Source: a virus
Taxonomy: Duplodnaviria; Heunggongvirae; Uroviricota; Caudoviricetes
Direction: 5' to 3' (one strand)
Virus record (IMG/VR): IMGVR_UViG_3300035670_000017
Span: 64,850-128,849 of that record
DNA: 64,000 nt
The position numbers and the translations under genes were made by a program. Under the pieces are notes generated by a model. It ran no database searches. It worked only from the letters and a program-made list of their open reading frames with translations, and was not told the origin of the DNA. Positions 4,516 to 23,812 of this stretch are shown here, in pieces. Position 1 is the stretch's first letter. Every line of letters begins with the position of its first letter.

Positions 4516-6159
4516 ATGACCAAACCCGCTTTCCAAACATACATTGATTTTGTTAACTCCACTGATCTGGAGAACAACCCTCGTCGAGTTATCGTCTTCC
4601 ATCATGGTGACATGGATGGCTACATGGGTGCCGCAGCTGCTTTGCGCGGCTTCCATAGCTTTTGTATCGACGGCAACTATGCCGTATCCAAGGGTCACCA
4701 GAACCTGCTGCAAAACATCATCTTCAAGGAAGTCAATTACGGTCGCATTGATGACGAGGAAATCTTGAACATGATCCATCAGCCCGGTACTGATGTGTTC
4801 ATGGTTGATTTCTCCTTCCTGGAAGATCTGTGCGAGAAGATCTACGCTAAGGCGGACTTCTTCCTGATCCTGGATCATCACATTTCCAGTGAGCGTGTTC
4901 TCAAGGGTAAGCCCTATGCTTACTTTGACCCACAAGCATCTGGTGCCAAGATGGCGTTCGAATACTTCAGCCCCGGTGTGGAAGTTCCCTTGGCTGTTCA
5001 GCTGGTGGATAATCGCGACCTTTGGAAAAAGGACACTGGCTGGGAGGACGAATTCCACGAAGCTCTGTATGCACGATTTGTTCGCGCCAAGGAACAAGGC
5101 GAGAACTACAATCAGGCTTTTGTGTCGGAACTGTTCACTGACTATCTGCAGTATCCAGCTGACCCTCTGGGAATGGTGCACAAAATGATTCGCATAGGCA
5201 CGCCCATGGTTGAACGTCGTGATATCGGTATCCGTTCTATGTGCAGCGACAAGCGTTTGATCGAGACTATCATCGGTGGCCATCCCGCTATCGCAGTGAA
5301 CGCTCCTTTGGACCAATCGGATGCCGGTGAATACTTGTACAACCAAGACAAGTACAAGAACCACATCATCGCTTTGTTCAATGTCTTGAACGACAAGATG
5401 ACCTTCAGTCTGCGTCGTAACGAGAACTTGGATATTGATTTGTCAGCGCTTGCTCAAAAGCACTATGGTGGTGGCGGTCATTCTCCTGCGGCTGGTTTTG
5501 CAGTTCCATTGCAGCGTGGCCTGAATATCATCCAGAACAAGGAGAAGTGGGCGCTTTGCTGGCCAACAGCGGCTGTCAAGCAGGCCATGGGTGCAGCTGA
5601 TCTGGCGCAAGTGGCTCAGGATCTGAGCGTCATCACACCCGAGCTGCATTCGCGTGCTGTCTGTGAGACAAATCTGGACCTACTGCAGATCCTCCCTTAC
5701 ATCGTGATCAAGCACACTGACGGAACCTATTTCACATACAACCGTCCTTCCTCTGGCACTGAGTCTCGCTTGCATGGTAATGACTCGGTTGGCCTGGGTG
5801 GACATGTGGATACAGCTCCTGCTGCTGGTGTCTCGATTGGCCTGCATCTGGGATTGGAAGCTCAGCGTGAACTCATGGAAGAAGTTGGATTCAGTGATGA
5901 ATCTCTCCCCACTCAGATCGAACAAGCGTTCTACAACGGTCAATTTGCTTTGATCAATGTGAACACTCGTCCTGTGGATGCGGTTCATCTGGGAATCGTC
6001 TTCGTGATTGAAGTCACTGACAAAGCACATCTGACCAAGATCGAAGAGTCTGAAGTGATCAATCCTCGTTGGTCTACTTTGGAAGAGCTGCGCAATCTGC
6101 CAAATCCTGAAACATGGACGCGCATTTTCGCACATGAGCTGCTGCAAAATCCGATGTAA
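4516..6159 (+). CDS. DHH/DHHA1 phosphoesterase fused to a C-terminal Nudix hydrolase domain (547 aa)
   Basis: DHH motifs VFHHGDMDG and LILDHHISS. DHHA1 GGGH box HYGGGGHSPAAGFAV. C-terminal Nudix-box-like GLHLGLEAQRELMEEVGF (REuxEExGu). Confidence 0.7.
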   Translation: MTKPAFQTYIDFVNSTDLENNPRRVIVFHHGDMDGYMGAAAALRGFHSFCIDGNYAVSKGHQNLLQNIIFKEVNYGRIDDEEILNMIHQPGTDVFMVDFSFLEDLCEKIYAKADFFLILDHHISSERVLKGKPYAYFDPQASGAKMAFEYFSPGVEVPLAVQLVDNRDLWKKDTGWEDEFHEALYARFVRAKEQGENYNQAFVSELFTDYLQYPADPLGMVHKMIRIGTPMVERRDIGIRSMCSDKRLIETIIGGHPAIAVNAPLDQSDAGEYLYNQDKYKNHIIALFNVLNDKMTFSLRRNENLDIDLSALAQKHYGGGGHSPAAGFAVPLQRGLNIIQNKEKWALCWPTAAVKQAMGAADLAQVAQDLSVITPELHSRAVCETNLDLLQILPYIVIKHTDGTYFTYNRPSSGTESRLHGNDSVGLGGHVDTAPAAGVSIGLHLGLEAQRELMEEVGFSDESLPTQIEQAFYNGQFALINVNTRPVDAVHLGIVFVIEVTDKAHLTKIEESEVINPRWSTLEELRNLPNPETWTRIFAHELLQNPM

Positions 6160-7124: not shown

Positions 7125-7556
7125 ATGAAAAAGATTCACAAACAAATCATCGCCAAGCAAGCTCGTTGCATCGACAAGGCCCTCAAACGCCACAATTTCA
7201 AGGAACGTCGAAAAATCTACTTCGACCGTATGCAACGGGGTCGTGATCAGGAGTTCCGTGAAATCCTGGGTAATAATCACCTGGTATTCTCCCGAGCCTA
7301 TGATCAGATGCTGGGTAGCTCCGATGGCGACAAGGCAAAGGCACTGCGTTCATTGTTTCGAACAACCCACTTCAACCACTGGCGGAATAACGAGAACGCC
7401 ATGCGTAACAAAACAGGTCGGTCGTCGGCCCTTTGGCACTATGCAGGGGACTACTGTCTCAAATTCCATGTAGCGTCTCAAATGTTCCCGGTCCAGCGCA
7501 CTGAGTACGCCAGGACCAGCGACATCGTCAAGCTCATGGCGAAGAATTTCCGGTAA
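7125..7556 (+). CDS. hypothetical basic protein (143 aa)
   Basis: AAAGGAACCTGCATCATG RBS-start. Lys/Arg-rich. Confidence 0.5.
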   Translation: MKKIHKQIIAKQARCIDKALKRHNFKERRKIYFDRMQRGRDQEFREILGNNHLVFSRAYDQMLGSSDGDKAKALRSLFRTTHFNHWRNNENAMRNKTGRSSALWHYAGDYCLKFHVASQMFPVQRTEYARTSDIVKLMAKNFR

Positions 7557-8675: not shown

Positions 8676-9092
8676 ATGAAAGCTAAAGAATATACAGCTA
8701 AGTACTTCTCTGATGTGACCGCGAATACCACTGTTGGTGAGTTGTCCGCGAAGATCGCAGACTGTTACAACGAATTCTCCAAGGAAATCATTCCTTTGTT
8801 GAAAAGCGTCCAAGCTACTACCAGCCTGGCAGCCAAGCTGGATGAGGTCAATAAGAAATGGCAGGCCGTCTTCAAGCCGCTGCAAAACAGTCTGATGGAC
8901 CAAGTCTCAGAAACAGCTCCAATGACCCCGGAGGGTAAGTTGGATCCAGATGCAGTTATCTCCAAGATCATGCTTCAGGGTACCGGTTTGGTATTTGAGC
9001 GTAACTTGGAGGATAATCATCCTGAGTTATTCGCTCTATTGAAGACCCGGCGCGAGGTGCCACTCTGGCGCAACGCTGGCCAGTGCATGTAA
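8676..9092 (+). CDS. hypothetical protein (138 aa)
   Basis: ORF followed by a strong terminator. Confidence 0.45.
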   Translation: MKAKEYTAKYFSDVTANTTVGELSAKIADCYNEFSKEIIPLLKSVQATTSLAAKLDEVNKKWQAVFKPLQNSLMDQVSETAPMTPEGKLDPDAVISKIMLQGTGLVFERNLEDNHPELFALLKTRREVPLWRNAGQCM

Positions 9093-17198: not shown

Positions 17199-17406
17199 AT
17201 CTTTGTACTAGTTATCGAAAGTGAAGGGAGTCTTATCAATGACCATACTATCGGTTTGAGTTGGTAGTAAATAAAAATAAGTTTTTGTATATACTGTGGA
17301 CAAAACCCTATGCAGCCTTCGGGCTGCGGGTGGGAGATGTTCGGGTATTTTACAAATAGGGAAATAAGGCGTAATAAAAAACCCCTTTCTAAAATATTTA
17401 GACCCT

Positions 17407-17424
17407 ATATACTCTACTTGAGGT
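17407..17424 (+). promoter_or_regulatory. motif copy 3 TATATACTCTACTTGAGG
   Basis: In the 330-bp divergent region, 108 bp upstream of ATG 17532. Confidence 0.55.
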
Positions 17425-17531
17425 AAAGCTGCTTCTTGTAGTAATCTCACAGACTCGTGCAATAAAATGCGGCGAGTAGATAACAACCCCCAACCCTTCA
17501 TCAACAAAGACTTTTTCGAAAAGGATACATC

Positions 17532-19460
17532 ATGGCTATCAATGTCGACCTGAACAACCTGGGCAACAACGGTGACGCACCCAAGCCCCAACCAAGCACT
17601 GACCGCAGCGAGGGTCAGCGTCCTTCCTCGGACAATTCTCGCACCTTCACTCAACAGACGAAAAACATGAGCAACATCTTCAATCCCTTCGACAACACCG
17701 GCGGTCAAGTTCTGGGCCGCATGATCCATCCTGAGTCCGGCTCCGAAGCGTTCAAGCGCGTGGTTGAGCTGCTGACCAAGACAGCTGCTGAAACCAACGG
17801 CGCTATCGAGATCTTCCCCTTCCCTCGCGAAATCCACACCGACCTGAGCCACTCGGTCATCGCTGTGGTCCGCAGCAACAAGGTCCCCGTGGGTCCCGGT
17901 CGCCCCAAGCACGATTTCGTGACTTGCCAGATCTGGATCATGGAAGCCACTGGCGAAGTGCCTCGTGCTCATGAAGTGGTCGAAGGTGGCAAGCGCTGGA
18001 TGGTGACACCCACCATCGAAGACAGCCATAACACCATCCTGGTCGAATACGTGTCTTCGACCCTGCGCAACCACTACGGCCAAGAAACCCTGGTCATGAC
18101 GATCGATCCCCTGATCATTCCTCGTGAACAAGATCTGACCAAGGACGAACGCCTGGTGGCTCAGCTGGACGTGTCGATCACCGCTGTGAACACCCGCACC
18201 TATGTGCGCATCGACGGCTTCCAGGACTACAACTACGTTGCCAACCACGGCGGCAAGGATGTTATCCTGGCTGTGTCGACCAGCATCCGTCCCGAGACCC
18301 GCACCGACCTGCAAAACCGTCCCTTCTACTCCGACGCCGAAGTGGTGGTCTCCGTGGAAAAGAACGGTCCTCGCACTCAAGGCGAAGTGTTCCACCAGCC
18401 TTCCACGACCAAGGATGTCTGCGCGACTTCCGTGATGGTGGACCTGGTGCCCGTGGACGCTGAGCTGCTGGAAGTCAACCGTTCGCACCGTGGTTCGGGT
18501 TTCCGTCCCAAGGCTGCATGGGCTCCTCGTCTGACTGCCGTCAACGTCGACCAGTTCTTCACCCGCACTCCTGCTGGTATCCTGTTTGCGCTGACCTCGA
18601 TGACACAGCTGGCTGCTGACCGCGCATACGCTGAGACTTTCCGTCCCAGCAAGCAACGCGACGCAGTGAACCTGCGTGACATCGGCTACCTGAACATCGA
18701 AGCCAACCTGGACGACGAAGAAGGCGAATACGGCAGCCGCGTGCCTGTGCAAGACGCCAGCGACAGCGAAATCGGCAAGTTCCTGGACCTGACCGTGACC
18801 CGCTTCCCTATCCTGGCCGTCGACTGCATGACCACTGGTCCTCAGGCGTACTACACCACCGGTCTGTACAACGTGGCTCGTGGCCGCAGCGACAGCGCTC
18901 GTCGCGCTCAAGCCGAACTGTATCACAGCCTGCGCTGCGCTACCAACGGCCTGATCGAGAACTTCGTCAGTCCTGACGAATCGTTCGTGGCTGACGAAGG
19001 TGAGCTGATCCATGTCGGTTACTGGATCGATGACAACGGCCGTCGCCGTGACCTGCGTGAGCTGGACAACTATCTGGCTGTGGCTGCTCTGTCCAAGAAC
19101 AACCCTCGCCTGATCGACGACTGGTGCGCTACCTACCACCGCATCGACATCGCTGAAGCTCGCCGCATGAGCGACCGCTGGAACATCCTGATGGCCATCT
19201 CGGCCAATGAGGCTGTCCAGACCGGCACCGCGCTGCGCGTGGGTATCAACGACAAGGTGGTGAGTGGTTTCGTGGACGCTCTGAGCGAAGCCAAGCTGCC
19301 TATGGTCAGCCGTGGCAGCGGCAATGGCGACGCGTTCGCAGTGCATCGTGCTGTCAGCCGTACCGCTGGCCGCTCCATGTACCGTGGTCAAGGCATGGCC
19401 CACAGCCAAGTCGCCGCCGGTGGCCGCGCTACCAGCCGTTGGGCTGCAGACCGCTTCTAA
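17532..19460 (+). CDS. highly expressed 642-aa protein; candidate phage-nucleus shell protein (chimallin-like); major capsid protein is the alternative
   Basis: GC3-rich codon usage unlike its neighbours. Disordered N-terminus (~60 aa) and C-terminus (~50 aa) flank a ~530-aa core. Followed by the RNAP beta-prime N gene, as in phiKZ gp54-gp55. Confidence 0.5.
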   Translation: MAINVDLNNLGNNGDAPKPQPSTDRSEGQRPSSDNSRTFTQQTKNMSNIFNPFDNTGGQVLGRMIHPESGSEAFKRVVELLTKTAAETNGAIEIFPFPREIHTDLSHSVIAVVRSNKVPVGPGRPKHDFVTCQIWIMEATGEVPRAHEVVEGGKRWMVTPTIEDSHNTILVEYVSSTLRNHYGQETLVMTIDPLIIPREQDLTKDERLVAQLDVSITAVNTRTYVRIDGFQDYNYVANHGGKDVILAVSTSIRPETRTDLQNRPFYSDAEVVVSVEKNGPRTQGEVFHQPSTTKDVCATSVMVDLVPVDAELLEVNRSHRGSGFRPKAAWAPRLTAVNVDQFFTRTPAGILFALTSMTQLAADRAYAETFRPSKQRDAVNLRDIGYLNIEANLDDEEGEYGSRVPVQDASDSEIGKFLDLTVTRFPILAVDCMTTGPQAYYTTGLYNVARGRSDSARRAQAELYHSLRCATNGLIENFVSPDESFVADEGELIHVGYWIDDNGRRRDLRELDNYLAVAALSKNNPRLIDDWCATYHRIDIAEARRMSDRWNILMAISANEAVQTGTALRVGINDKVVSGFVDALSEAKLPMVSRGSGNGDAFAVHRAVSRTAGRSMYRGQGMAHSQVAAGGRATSRWAADRF

Positions 19461-19506
19461 TAGAAGCACAGCCTCTAGCAATAGGGGCTTTTAACTGAAG
19501 CATACT

Positions 19507-20500: not shown

Positions 20501-20518
20501 TATATACTTCACTTGAGG
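20501..20518 (+). promoter_or_regulatory. motif copy 4 TATATACTTCACTTGAGG
   Basis: 47 bp upstream of GTG 20565. Overlaps the left arm of hairpin 20518-20536. Confidence 0.5.
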
Positions 20519-20548
20519 ACCGATGACGTATCGGTCTTTTTGTTATTG
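20518..20548 (+). terminator. hairpin gaccgat gacgt atcggtc + TTTTTGTT (terminator/attenuator-like) between motif and RBS
   Basis: 7-bp stem plus T-run immediately downstream of the promoter-like motif. Confidence 0.45.
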
Positions 20549-20564: not shown

Positions 20565-21734
20565 GTGCCTATTATTAATAGGTTTGTAAATCATGATGAG
20601 CTTTATGAAAAAGCGATCGCATCGGGAATCACCCCGATCATCATCAATGATCTACCGAATACTACAGAAGCCGACAAGCAGTACATCCGAGATCTGACAC
20701 TCACTCAACTTACCAGCGACACGATCAACACGATCCCCAGCTGTAAGTGTGGAGCTACCCGTGGCAAATATGCCATCGGCAAGGTCTGCCCGATTCCTAC
20801 ATGCGGAGACGTCGTCAAGACTAACATCGAAGACTCCTCTCGGTCTTTGCTCTGGGTGCGAGCACCTGAGGGTGTAGATGCATTGGTATCTCCGGTGGTT
20901 TGGAAGATGCTCTCCGCGTACTTCACCAAGAACAACCACAATGCGATTGCGTGGCTGACTGACTCTCACTATACAAGTGCTTCTCGAACTCCCGTGGAGA
21001 TTGATAAGCTGTATCGCAAGGGTCACGAGAGGGATCTGAATTATTTCATCAGGAATTTCGACACGATCTTGTTGGACCTGATGGAGATCTTCCCTGAAAA
21101 GCCAAATCGCAGGTATAACAAACTGCGGCATTTCATCGACGAACACCGAGACATCATCTTCAGTCGCTTTCAACCGATTGCTTCCCGGAACTTGTTCATC
21201 ACGGACAAGACCAATCTGGGTATCTACATGGAAGATGCGATCAAGGATGCCCTGGACACCATCTATCACTTTGTGTCGATCGACGCAGAGTTCTATGATC
21301 GGTCTCCTAAGGTGATCGCTAATCGAACAGCGCGCTTTCTTGCCAGACAAGCGGAGTTCTATCCCGACTACATCACTACGAACTTTCAGCCAAAGCCGGG
21401 TCACTACCGACGCTATATGCTGGGTGCTCGTAACATCTTCTCTGCTCGCGGTGTGATCACATCAGTCACAGGTGAGCATAAGTATGACGAAGTCGGTATA
21501 CCGTGGCGTATCGCAGTTCCGATGTATAGTCATGACCTCATGGGTAAACTCATGCGGTACGGCTATAACTTCAATGAAGCTCTTGGCTATGTGATGCGAA
21601 AGGTTGTCGTATATGACAAACTGATCCATCGCTTCTTGGATGAGATCTTCAGTGAGTCTCCTGGTGGACGTGGACCTTCGATGATCTTACATCGGAACCC
21701 AACGCTTATACATTCAATATATTCATACATATAG
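20565..21734 (+). CDS. multisubunit RNA polymerase beta-prime, N-terminal fragment, exon 1 (reading frame runs into intron 1)
   Basis: GTG start with AGGAAGG RBS. Zn ribbon CKCG-x11-CPIPTCG. RRYMLGARNIFSARGVITSV matches GKRVDFSGRSVI. ILHRNPTLIHS matches NRAPTLH. Confidence 0.8.
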   Translation: MPIINRFVNHDELYEKAIASGITPIIINDLPNTTEADKQYIRDLTLTQLTSDTINTIPSCKCGATRGKYAIGKVCPIPTCGDVVKTNIEDSSRSLLWVRAPEGVDALVSPVVWKMLSAYFTKNNHNAIAWLTDSHYTSASRTPVEIDKLYRKGHERDLNYFIRNFDTILLDLMEIFPEKPNRRYNKLRHFIDEHRDIIFSRFQPIASRNLFITDKTNLGIYMEDAIKDALDTIYHFVSIDAEFYDRSPKVIANRTARFLARQAEFYPDYITTNFQPKPGHYRRYMLGARNIFSARGVITSVTGEHKYDEVGIPWRIAVPMYSHDLMGKLMRYGYNFNEALGYVMRKVVVYDKLIHRFLDEIFSESPGGRGPSMILHRNPTLIHSIYSYI

Positions 21735-23150
21735 TATGAGAGTATTGAAGCGTCGATATCTCTCTTATTTAAGCTAGGGAAATACCGATGTCTAATGAAA
21801 CTGTAATTAACTTTGACGGAGAAGACTGGAAAGCTGTTCCAGGGTTTTCAGATGTTTACGTGACTAAAACCGGACGAGTTGCCGGTAGACGTCGGGGAAT
21901 AATGATCGAGAGAATATACCAGAAAAGCAATCGCTTATACGGTATCGATGAAAATGGAAACGAATCCAGATACATCCTCGTGACTCTTCCCGGTAAAAAA
22001 GGAGGTAGATCCCGGACAAGCACAGGCGTTCATCGTCTTGTTTGTTTGACTTGGAACGGACCGCCACCATCTGACGATAAGAAATATGAAGTTAACCACA
22101 TAGACGGAAACAAGGCTAATAATAACGCCAAGAATCTGGAATGGGTTACCGGATCTAAGAATGTTCAACATTGTTACAACATCGGAAAGCACTCTGTTGC
22201 TCGACGAATAGTTGCCACCAATGTTGATACTGGTTTGGTTAAATACTATCGCTCGGGAAAACAATTAGCCGACGAATACGGATTTAATCATTTCCACGTC
22301 TCATCTTTCCTCAATAAACATGAAACCGACCCCTTGGATGGGTGGGTTTTTGAATACGAGGCGACGGATGAATCTACTTCTTATCGACATCACTCTTCGC
22401 GTCAAATAGCTTATAAAGACTATCTAACTAATGTAATACATCTCTTGCCGTCTTGCAGAGCAGCTTCTAGCCTATCTAAAGTCAAATGCGGAACTATTGT
22501 TTCCGCTGTACGATATAATAGACTCAATGGGCCGCGCTTAACAGGACAATTCGTTTTTCAGGATCTAACCGCGAATATGGTCTGGCCTGAATATACGAAG
22601 GAGGAGATTGAGACAAGTATAGAAAGTATGCGTAAGCGTTCGTTACTTACAGCGAAACGACATCGTTTCTAAAGTTTAAATAAGGGAGATATTGGCGAGT
22701 AGGCCGATTATCTAGAAATAGGTAATTGAAATCTACCTTTTTGCGGGGAACTCTCGTTAGGCTCTATCTACCAAGTACAATGAGTAATTGTTGTATGGCT
22801 TGTCTAGTCAGCAAGGTACGGTAACAAGGATAGAGATAGAGACAATCGCGCAGCGAAGCTCCCACTGGGAGTAGCGTTCAACGACTAGAGCTGAAATGCT
22901 CGTAGGGCCCAAGCGGGCGTGCAACTTGCACCGTAAGCCGAAATGGTAGACACCTGACCAGGTAATGCTGAAGGTGAAGATATAGTCTGTTCCATCTCTG
23001 AACTGACAGAGAGTAATGAGCGAAAGCTCTGGCGGGTGTCCTAGCGCACCGGCTTAATTCAAAGATCGACGTGAGTCGTGGCGGTTTTAAGCGGACATTA
23101 AGGCAACAAGGTTCCATGCAGCGCTTCTTTGGTAAGCTGAAGACTGATCC
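21735..23150 (+). mobile_element. group I intron 1 (about 1.4 kb, boundaries approximate) carrying an HNH homing-endonuclease ORF
   Basis: Core elements downstream of the HEG: P 22741 TTGCGGGGAA, Q 22844 AATCGCGCAGC, R 22876 GTTCAACGACTAGA, S 22977 AAGATATAGTC. No protein-coding signal 22673-23150 apart from the micro-exon. Confidence 0.6.
21788..22672 (+). CDS. HNH homing endonuclease (294 aa), intron-encoded
   Basis: HNH motif VHRLVCLTWNG...YEVNHIDGNKANNNAKNLEWVT. N-terminal NUMOD-like WKAVPGFSDVYVTKTGRV. Own RBS GGGAAATACCGATG. Confidence 0.8.
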   Translation: MSNETVINFDGEDWKAVPGFSDVYVTKTGRVAGRRRGIMIERIYQKSNRLYGIDENGNESRYILVTLPGKKGGRSRTSTGVHRLVCLTWNGPPPSDDKKYEVNHIDGNKANNNAKNLEWVTGSKNVQHCYNIGKHSVARRIVATNVDTGLVKYYRSGKQLADEYGFNHFHVSSFLNKHETDPLDGWVFEYEATDESTSYRHHSSRQIAYKDYLTNVIHLLPSCRAASSLSKVKCGTIVSAVRYNRLNGPRLTGQFVFQDLTANMVWPEYTKEEIETSIESMRKRSLLTAKRHRF

Positions 23151-23214
23151 AACCGATCCAAGTATCGGGATGAGCATTCTGACAGTCGTACCGCCTAACG
23201 CTGACTTCGACGGT
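23150..23214 (+). CDS. beta-prime micro-exon 2 encoding ...SIGMSILTVVPPNADFDG (5' boundary approximate)
   Basis: Aligns to beta-prime IQLHPLVCAAYNADFDG. The 3' end is fixed by P1 pairing of exon GACGGT with intron GCCGTC (23224-23229), with U.G at the splice site. Confidence 0.5.
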
Positions 23215-23512
23215 AAACATATTGCCGTCTCTAAACTCTTTTAATTGCTGGGAACTCCTTAGAGCCTAATAGACCACTGCGAGTCGAAAGACAAAGCCAA
23301 GGTTTGACAACTATCAGGATTGGATAATCAGCAGCTAAGCCCCTTGAGTGCTAATTGACATAGGGGAAAGTTCACAGATCATCGAAAGGGTAGGCTAAAA
23401 GCCGAGTAACCGAGTAGAGTAGAATCCACTAGCGGTAAGGTGGAAAGAAATGGAGAGCACTCTGTAAAGAGTGAAGATATGATCGGTCCGCTTCGAAAGA
23501 ACGCGGGATGTG
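23215..23512 (+). other. group I intron 2 (about 298 nt, ORF-less)
   Basis: IGS GCCGTC 23224-23229. P 23242 AATTGCTGGGAA, Q 23326 AATCAGCAGC, R 23370 GTTCACAGATCAT, S 23474 AAGATATGATCGG. The 3' exon start AAAATG can pair with CATATT (P10). Confidence 0.55.
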
Positions 23513-23757
23513 GATAAAATGACCTACCACATGACTCAGGGTACGCTCCTGAGGAAAGCTCTGACGAGTTAATGGTCCACGGATGCACTCAACCTCATGA
23601 GAGCTGTTGATAAGAAGATGGCTGATTTCTGGGAAGTATTCGCTACCCATTACAACATCTTCTTGCTGGATAACCCGATGGAAGCATCTGGTAATCTGGC
23701 CCTTACTAAGCCTATCGTGATGAGCGGTGGTGCTTGGCTGGAAGACGAAGACGACTA
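23513..23757 (+). CDS. beta-prime exon 3: DKMTYH... completes NADFDG|DKMTYH; stops at TAA 23570 overlapping ATG 23572; a second frame continues to 23757 (frameshift or extra split unresolved)
   Basis: NADFDGDKMTYH compares with the universal NADFDGDQMAVH. The downstream frame ...NIFLLDNPMEASGNLALTKPIVMSGG resembles beta-prime [20 protein letters not shown]. Confidence 0.45.
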
Positions 23758-23767
23758 ACAACAATCT

Positions 23768-23812
23768 ATCTCTAGATACCCCAAAAGGGTATCTAGAGAT
23801 ATTTCTTTTTTA
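23768..23812 (+). terminator. intrinsic terminator (tctctagataccc caaaa gggtatctagaga + T-run)
   Basis: 13-bp stem followed by tatttcttttttagg. Confidence 0.75.

Follow-up and report, generated by a model that had tools for sequence, protein, structure and literature searches.

Two predicted group I introns around the catalytic loop of a chimallivirus non-virion RNA polymerase gene

A stretch of 64,000 nucleotides (nt) from a tailed-phage record of IMG/VR (Caudoviricetes; IMGVR_UViG_3300035670_000017, positions 64,850 to 128,849; hereafter the window, meaning the whole of this stretch) was analysed around an RNA polymerase (RNAP) gene that begins at position 20565. The locus very probably holds a single gene for the N-terminal part of the beta-prime subunit (beta'-N) of the non-virion RNA polymerase (nvRNAP) of a chimallivirus, a homolog of phiKZ gp55, broken by two group I introns, apparently of subgroup IA type. 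Support for this reading comes from ribozyme-core homology, covariation, the U/G rules at the splice junctions, the restored reading frame and the existence of intron-plus and intron-minus alleles. Self-splicing itself, the nicking activity of the intron-encoded endonuclease and its target, and the mode of spread of the second intron are inferred. The predicted map is given below; HNH denotes a homing endonuclease open reading frame (ORF), -1 the last exon base, omega-G the last intron base, and a slash within a sequence marks a splice or insertion site.

20565-21706 (+): exon 1 of the nvRNAP beta'-N gene, 1142 nt, 380 codons plus CT of Leu381, ending ...LHRNPT(L)
21707-23102 (+): intron 1, group I with the HNH ORF in its P1 loop, 1396 nt; U21706 at -1, omega-G at G23102
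23103-23214 (+): micro-exon, 112 nt, 37 codons plus one base; the G of Leu381 followed by QQGSMQRFFGKLKTDPTDPSIGMSILTVVPPNADFDG
23215-23581 (+): intron 2, group I without an ORF, 367 nt; U23214 at -1, omega-G at G23581
23582-23758 (+): exon 3, 177 nt including TAA (23756-23758); DALNLMRAVDKK...AWLEDEDD

Splice map and spliced product

Junctions were mapped using intron-less homologs and homologous introns. Relatives retrieved by protein search form a clade at 57-91% identity and are referred to as loci (L numbers) or as 90%-identity clusters of gp55 homologs (P numbers). Translation of the spliced exons (1142 + 112 + 174 coding nt) gave a continuous protein of 476 aa, the catalytic centre of which reads ...HRNPTLQQGSMQR...NADFDGDALNLM... 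without interruption, as it does in the intron-less homologs P0007 and P0009; these uninterrupted alleles read ...HRNPTLQQGSMQRVFGYLKTD...APNADFDGDALNLMLAPDAKMA... across the junction sites. When aligned back to the window (tblastn), the spliced model fell into three blocks, 20565-21707, 23104-23214 and 23582-23755. It was gap-free against P0007, P0009 and phiKZ gp55 across both junctions, and all four junction nucleotides obeyed the rule of U at -1 and G at omega.

Of the 476 residues of the spliced product, 5-470 matched chain A of PDB 7ogp (E 3.5e-77; tblastn/phmmer) with no gaps at the junctions. The phiKZ-like split beta-prime proposed in the initial annotation is borne out by this continuous alignment. 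The chain is labelled by its depositors 'PHIKZ055 ... PHIKZ056.1', that is, as the spliced phiKZ gp55 fusion, and 7ogp is the phiKZ nvRNAP. Beta-prime chains of AR9 in 7s00/7s01, the AR9 non-virion polymerase, matched at E ~2e-24, and bacterial beta-prime subunits matched in the region of the NADFDGD loop (for E. coli, residues 332-466 at E 3.6e-5). The homology thus has the extent expected of the gp55 family, full length with the NADFDGD loop included and the split after the DPBB domain. On these matches, and with chimallin as the upstream neighbour, the gene is identified as that of the N-terminal beta-prime subunit of the nvRNAP of a nucleus-forming jumbo phage, homologous to phiKZ gp55.

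The end of exon 1 was fixed by the P0007 and P0009 alleles, by an intron-minus and intron-plus pair of sister loci (L003 and L014) and by the position of the omega-G in L014 and L015. It lies at 21706 and not at ~21730 as first annotated, the last nine codons of the exon-1 ORF (IHSIYSYI and the stop) being intron sequence. From the window alone, intron 1 has two possible registers. Shifting it one nt to the right (after T21707 and after G23103) gives the same protein, with CTT-Leu for CTG-Leu, and in the window both registers satisfy the U/G rule. The homologous introns of L014 and L015 decide the matter: they end ...AAG/TCAACAAGG, a T precedes CAACAAGG, and only the left-hand register ends in G. 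As the conserved P1 helix also puts the U.G wobble on U21706, the shifted register is improbable and the boundaries 21706/21707 and 23102/23103 are retained.

The micro-exon aligned without gaps to phiKZ gp55 and to the intron-less P0007 and P0009. A short exon carrying the NADFDG loop between two introns had been predicted, and this part of the prediction stands; its length is 112 nt and not ~65 nt, the 3' splice site of intron 1 having been misplaced. Exon 3 opens with GAT GCA CTC AAC (DALN) at 23582 and agrees in length and register with phiKZ PHIKZ056.1 and the intron-less alleles. The micro-exon encodes the first and second catalytic Asp residues. As exon 3 starts at 23582, the third is its first codon; the triad is therefore cut by intron 2 between the second and third Asp (DFDG/D), and not bracketed by the two introns as had been proposed.

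The intron 2 junction is unambiguous (GGT/AAACAT ... CCACG/GATGCA). The initial annotation had placed the end of this intron, given as ~300 nt, at G23512, resuming the gene at 23513 with GAT AAA ATG ACC TAC CAC after a micro-exon of ~65 nt and a junction GGT/GATAAAATG. The resulting DKMTYH resembles the universal DQMAVH, G23512/GAU satisfies the omega-G rule in frame, and the Rfam model match stops at 23505. The product, however, would read ...DKMTYHMTQGTLLRKALTS and end at an in-frame TAA (23570-72) after 19 codons, with the loss of 58 conserved C-terminal residues, whereas DGD-[AQ]-L-N-L is found in phiKZ gp55 and in all relatives, and only the 23582 junction gives the 38-residue spacing to the SGNL motif seen in phiKZ. 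The DKMTYH bases lie inside a hairpin (23508-23532) that four homologous introns build from unrelated bases, DKMTYH is absent from all homologs, and a micro-exon start at 23103 is needed to supply QQGSMQRFFGKLKTDPTDP. The chance that the earlier exon model is right is next to negligible; the likeness of DKMTYH to DQMAVH is a coincidence within an intron hairpin, and intron 2 is taken to run for 367 nt to G23581. Overall, two of the four splice junctions of the earlier map had been misplaced. An intein or a translational bypass was also considered for the in-frame stop and was dropped, the homologs placing the stop inside the intron.

The ligated junctions are predicted to read ACGCT/GCAACAAGG (CT/G, 21706/23103) and GACGGT/GATGCACTC (23214/23582), and the junction-spanning peptides expected from the spliced protein are PTLQQGSMQR and NADFDGDALNLMR. 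The nvRNAP is essential in the phiKZ-like phage family. Annotated without the corrected map, the subunit appears as a 389-aa ORF and orphan fragments, and its catalytic Asp triad seems to be missing.

Ribozyme anatomy of the two introns

The elements to which this section refers are the following.

21704-21709 (+): intron 1, modelled 5' strand of P1, GCU/UAU; pairs with 22699-22704
21788-22672 (+): HNH homing endonuclease ORF, I-HmuI-like, 294 aa; Pfam HNH_3 at 43.4 bits against a cut-off of 24.8
22686-23009 (+): intron 1, catalytic core P2-P9 (RF00028), with a ~54-nt insert between P7 and P3' (P7.1/P7.2-like)
22699-22704 (+): intron 1, modelled internal guide and 3' strand of P1, GUAGGC; G22702 opposite U21706, 3 nt upstream of P2
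22708-22725 (+): intron 1, P2 hairpin UUAUCUA-GAAA-UAGGUAA; covaries in L014 and L015
23508-23553 (+): intron 2, two peripheral hairpins (P9.1/P9.2-like) of the 3' extension, past the end of the Rfam model; minimum free energy (MFE) fold

The whole window was scanned with Rfam, in which RF00028 (Intron_gpI) has a gathering threshold of 50 bits. The covariance search returned the core of intron 1 (22686-23009, + strand; 57.0 bits, E 8.1e-12, full model 1-253) and that of intron 2 (23205-23505, + strand; 61.1 bits, E 4.9e-13), and beyond these two no further Rfam match was found in the 64 kb even at E<=0.01. Two group I introns, the first with an HNH endonuclease, had been recognized in the gene from the start, and the strings then taken for P, Q, R and S correspond to the P4, P4', P7 and P7' strands of the Rfam alignments. 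Both introns carry an insert of 54-67 nt between P7 and P3' (Rfam alignment), which forms two hairpins in the consensus fold. Subgroup IA is distinguished by extra P7.1/P7.2 helices between P7 and P3', and both introns appear to be of IA type, as judged by the position of the insert relative to a generic group I model.

For intron 1, a consensus fold was computed with RNAalifold from the ORF-deleted intron of the window and the introns at the same site in L014 and L015, which are 91% identical to it outside the ORF. Columns 10-15 paired with columns 65-70, corresponding to P1, with the splice-site U.G present in 3/3 sequences and with one compensatory change (G-C to U-A) and one change from U.G to U-A. 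The P2 hairpin changed from U.G to A-U, from C-G to U.G and from U-A to C-G in L014/L015, the omega-G was conserved in 3/3, and 24/140 consensus pairs of the family were compensated. The HNH ORF lies between the two P1 strands and therefore in the P1 loop. The pairing of GCU/UAU with GUAGGC is the best model of P1 rather than a proven one. Two other partners were tried and rejected: AAGCGU at 21759-64 would give U-A instead of U.G, lies in the loop of a conserved hairpin and is broken in L014/L015, and GGCGTT within the HNH ORF (22025) fits the window and L015 but finds no compensation in L014, the match at 22025 being due to conserved TGVHR codons.

An 81-nt leader (21707-21787) separates the 5' splice site from the start codon of the HNH ORF and shows ~90% conservation in L014/L015. 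Within it lie small hairpins, one of them with compensatory changes, and a sigma-70-like match (TATACA-17-TATAGT); signals for expression of the endonuclease could reside there.

In intron 2, P1 is formed by GACGGU (23209-23214) and GCCGUC (23224-23229) with the wobble U23214.G23224, as the initial annotation had it. At this site (NADFDG/D) five homologous introns (window, L005, L007, L008 and L009) share P1-P9. The splice-site U.G was kept in 5/5, a synonymous GAC/GAT change in the exon was matched by G/A in the guide (C-G to U-A compensation), and 30/77 consensus pairs of the family were compensated. All five introns end G/GAY GCN (or CAA) YTN AAY. Of the two hairpins in the 3' extension, hairpin 1 (23508-23532, AUGUGG...CCACAU) was retained with different sequence in the homologous introns (consensus columns 387-407); hairpin 2 occupies 23536-23553. 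Intron 2 occurs alone in L008 and with other partner introns elsewhere, so the two introns assort independently.

Several points weigh against the two-intron reading. Splicing is deduced from sequence, and a cryptic G/GAU at 23512/23513 could in principle act as an alternative 3' splice site. The P1 of intron 1 includes three exon base pairs only and was derived from three sequences ~91% identical to one another; in the window alone, a 4-bp pairing of CGCU with GGCG at 22694-97 is also possible, and it was rejected as missing in the relatives. The whole-intron MFE of intron 2 was no better than that of shuffled sequences (z -0.71), a usual outcome for group I introns that lends the reading no support.

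Alternatively, the introns could be decayed and non-splicing, the locus then being a pseudogene or encoding separate polypeptides (the 389-aa exon-1 ORF and small ORFs). Gene callers do annotate separate ORFs here, and splicing at this locus is a prediction from the DNA. Both cores nevertheless score above the gathering threshold and show compensatory changes across relatives, the four junction nucleotides all follow the rule, the exons are in register and under protein constraint, and no start codon within the micro-exon would yield the catalytic loop. The phiKZ ortholog, moreover, is a spliced fusion in a purified polymerase deposited in the PDB, and the nvRNAP is an essential enzyme in this phage family. 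Decay is accordingly regarded as extremely unlikely, and two functional introns remain the preferred reading.

Endonuclease, intron turnover and genomic setting

The only relative of the HNH ORF in the PDB was I-HmuI (1u3e_M, E 1.1e-6), aligned over the HNH motif and the following helical region. Its identity was 84% with the ORF of the L014 intron and 81% with that of L015, both of which occupy the site of intron 1; with phiKZ gp56 and the HNH proteins of introns at neighbouring sites it was 29-37%. L003 and L014 stem from two samples of a sister phage, the protein of which is ~90% identical to that of the window. Intron 1 is present in L014 and absent from L003 (L003:7131-7160 against L014:3910-3921 and 5319-5335), while exon 1 is 99.3% identical and the second intron (NAD/F) and exon 3 are 100% identical between the two. 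Half of the exon differences (6/12) fall close to the insertion site, at most 3 nt before or 12 nt past it. The site reads ACG TTA CAA CAG GGT TCC in L003 and ACT CT/T CAA CAA GGC TCG in L014; the intron-less site of L003 is CCAACGTTACAACAGGGTTCC. The differences clustered there are synonymous. This is the pattern that would be expected of homing with co-conversion of flanking exon bases, and target-site divergence that gives immunity to the endonuclease would yield the same pattern.

On the proposed mechanism, a primary transcript would start at ~20.55 kb and reach the 23.8-kb terminator, and each intron would excise itself by two guanosine-initiated transesterification steps. Intron 1 would use P1 GCU/UAU with GUAGGC, the wobble U21706.G22702 and omega-G23102, and intron 2 would use P1 GACGGU with GCCGUC, the wobble U23214.G23224 and omega-G23581. 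Ligation of the exons would give the 476-aa subunit with a continuous catalytic centre, for which both introns must go. In nucleus-forming phages transcription takes place apart from translation (PMC12908238), and the ribozymes may gain from this time to fold ahead of the ribosomes. The HNH ORF, which has its own start codon in the P1 loop of intron 1, may encode an enzyme that, by analogy with I-HmuI and PhiPA3 gp210, nicks intron-less gp55 alleles of co-infecting relatives and so leads to homing or interference, with co-conversion of the flanks. Intron 2 could be kept by vertical descent or by recombination, perhaps as a hitch-hiker when breaks are made 112 bp away.

Exon maps with continuous translation were derived for eight related loci and phiKZ; the short internal exons in them are predicted ones.

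phiKZ, L003 and L008: one intron each, no short internal exons
Window, L005 and L014: two introns each; the L005 exon is 9 nt (TTTGACGGT)
L007 and L015: three introns each; exons of 91 and 21 nt in L015 and of 108 and 12 nt in L007
L009: four introns; exons of 111, 3 (GAT) and 9 nt, the 3-nt exon being putative

The four intron cores of L009 (L009:7117-8911; Logan SRR23684494 contig 33565) scored 63, 72, 37 and 69 bits in Rfam, 8/8 junction bases obeyed the U/G rule, and the spliced translation was continuous; its 9-nt exon is TTCGACGGT. In L005 a 9-nt micro-exon (FDG; L005:8690-8698, GCA_003575205.1 QXGG01042329.1), and in L015 one of 21 nt (PNADFDG; L015:5782-5802), each lie between two group I introns, and L010 has at least two introns and an exon of ~20 nt before its contig ends. 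Insertion sites were found at HR/N, HRN/P, PT(L), QGS/M and VVA/P, then within or after the N codon of PNA, at PN/A (phiKZ) and NA/D, and finally at NAD/F, DFDG/D and DFDGD/. Among the gp55-homolog clusters (P0001-P0050), 35/49 informative ones stop at such a site and 14/49 are full length. The stops fall at about nine positions (query residues 377-419), which together with the sites in the fetched loci makes ~11 in 43 codons; truncation was confirmed as a group I intron in the fetched loci only. We consider it about as likely as not that, in the retrieved gp55 homologs, the 43 codons from HRNPTL to NADFDGD are a hot-spot with an exceptional density of group I introns. To our knowledge, such a density of introns with exons so small has not been described for a viral protein-coding gene; the nearest parallel to the hot-spot is found in mitochondrial cox1 genes.

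Exons of 9 nt (TTYGACGGT) and 3 nt (GAT) would impose an order on splicing, and the tiny exons may reflect an arms race of competing intron endonucleases in co-infecting nucleus-forming phages. The hot-spot in the relatives is the part most worth following up.

Two junctions of L007 (JGI 3300024308 Ga0247725_1000016) were irregular: at 7125/7126 exon 1 ends in C (AAC/) and not in U, and at 8951/8952 the NA/D intron ends in C (CCCGTC/GAT) and not in G, both junctions being needed for the frame. Errors in sequencing, a gene that is defective, or splicing at non-canonical sites could account for them. Contigs of clusters P0004, P0005 and P0025 (L006, L011-L013) break off only a few bases from where exon 1 ends and contain no intron sequence, an indication that short-read assembly fails here on repeated intron sequences.

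The twin-intron layout might instead be regulatory, with skipping or ordered splicing of the 112-nt exon tuning nvRNAP output. Tandem group I introns of phage Twort have been reported to give exon skipping (Landthaler & Shub 1999, as cited in PMC11878797 and PMC11620839), and skipping here, which joins CT to GAT..., would shift the frame and end the product after six codons. Nothing in the sequence requires such regulation, however, and the presence of one to four introns at shifting sites in close relatives points to turnover of selfish elements and not to a conserved regulatory design. A regulatory role is thus very improbable.

The remaining features of the locus concern its neighbourhood.

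17532-19460 (+): gene for chimallin, the phage nuclear shell protein; Pfam PF25677 Chimallin_Phikzvirus, 59 bits against a cut-off of 27
23767-23811 (+): intrinsic-terminator-like hairpin and T-run, a 15-bp stem followed by TTTCTTTTTT; consensus scan only

The chimallin gene lies directly upstream of the polymerase gene, as gp54 does of gp55 in phiKZ, and this order was kept in 10 related loci. A terminator-like hairpin matching the downstream one was found upstream at 20515-20539 (consensus scan only), and the polymerase gene, flanked in this way, is probably transcribed as one unit. The window sequence is identical in the ENA assembly ERZ4201046 (NODE_9_length_184740), and the gene layout was assembled from four further samples (five independent samples). 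The closest proteins of cultured phages are only ~35% identical (PhiPA3), and the lineage is therefore taken to be an uncultured one among chimalliviruses; searching IMG/VR viral contigs with the exon-1 protein found no relatives.

The chimallin gene (window 17500-19500) has a G+C content of 56-61%, against 40-48% in the flanking genes, and this G+C island produces a spurious antisense ORF of 757 aa (17208-19481). Between the chimallin and polymerase genes of L015, a sub-threshold match to HEARO RNA (L015:661-834; 41 bits against a gathering score of 83) adjoins an ORF with an RRXRR domain (L015:923-2026). The pair, which is not in the window, may be an IscB-like element.

Comparison with known systems

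Neither intron was found in any cultured phage among 50,697 phage records (megablast, blastn); matches were confined to core segments of ~40-125 nt (phiKZ-like phages, HPP-Temi, PAP02-like phages, ICP1 and others). The best DNA match of intron 2 (23233-23343) was to the Pseudomonas phage HPP-Temi (PP968062.1, L002:3921-4255; 84-86% over ~110 nt), where the intron lies in a different RNAP gene at ...TTNDD/, a site resembling that of PhiPA3 gp210. Related ribozyme cores therefore occur in different RNAP subunit genes.

The closest known system is the phiKZ gene 55/gp56 intron. According to the account cited in PMC11512511, introns in phiKZ RNAP genes, including that of gp55/gp56, have been reported since the genome paper. 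It shares with the window the orthologous host gene, synteny with chimallin, an HNH ORF upstream of the ribozyme core and insertion in the codons of the NADFDGD loop; its core is ~81% identical to that of intron 2 over ~100 nt and the HNH proteins are 29% identical. Unlike the window, with introns at HRNPT(L) and NADFDG/D, phiKZ has one, at PN/ADFDGD, and the site of intron 2 is 15 nt downstream of it. The HNH ORF of the window, moreover, is in the upstream intron, whereas the intron nearest to the phiKZ site is without an ORF. The arrangement had been called striking in the initial annotation. Two introns are indeed predicted in this stretch, but the description was overstated, phiKZ gp55 having a known HNH intron at N/ADFDGD and relatives having one to four introns in the stretch.

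The intron of PhiPA3 gp210 is likewise an HNH group I intron in a multisubunit RNAP gene of a chimallivirus, next to catalytic Asp codons; it sits immediately after two conserved Asp residues (PMC11620839). It differs in being a single intron and in belonging to the beta subunit of the virion polymerase. The endonuclease gp210 nicks the intron-less allele of a co-infecting phage and acts as a weapon between co-infecting phages (Birkholz et al. 2024, PMC11620839), and by analogy it is a likely mechanistic model for the endonuclease of the window. I-HmuI (PDB 1u3e), a nicking endonuclease from the DNA-polymerase intron of SPO1, is also intron-encoded in a phage polymerase gene; the HNH protein of the window differs from it by low identity and an extra C-terminal region of ~100 aa.

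Several introns in one essential gene, some with HNH ORFs and with short exons between them, are known from Twort orf142, for which three group I introns with exon skipping are described (Landthaler & Shub 1999, as above), and from the DNA polymerase and terminase genes of Bastillevirinae, with two or three introns (PMC11878797). Here, in contrast, the host is a subunit of a multisubunit RNAP and the introns lie within 37 codons around its active-site loop. Very small exons between organellar introns are known (PMC5436844). As the HNH intron of phiKZ gp55 and multi-intron phage genes were already known, the present locus does not represent a new mechanism; what is new is two insertion sites in a known host gene.

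L014 and L003 as a pair, together with the relatives and their mosaic of one to four introns, constitute a ready system for the study of homing, target immunity and competition between introns, and of the way in which group I ribozymes handle exons of 3-9 nt. They also allow examination of an older proposal (cited in PMC7598289) by which the mobility of introns had a part in the splitting of RNAP genes in jumbo phages. Alongside PhiPA3 gp210, the nvRNAP beta-prime gene of the window adds an independent example, the second, of jumbo-phage RNAPs with mobile introns in their catalytic centre.

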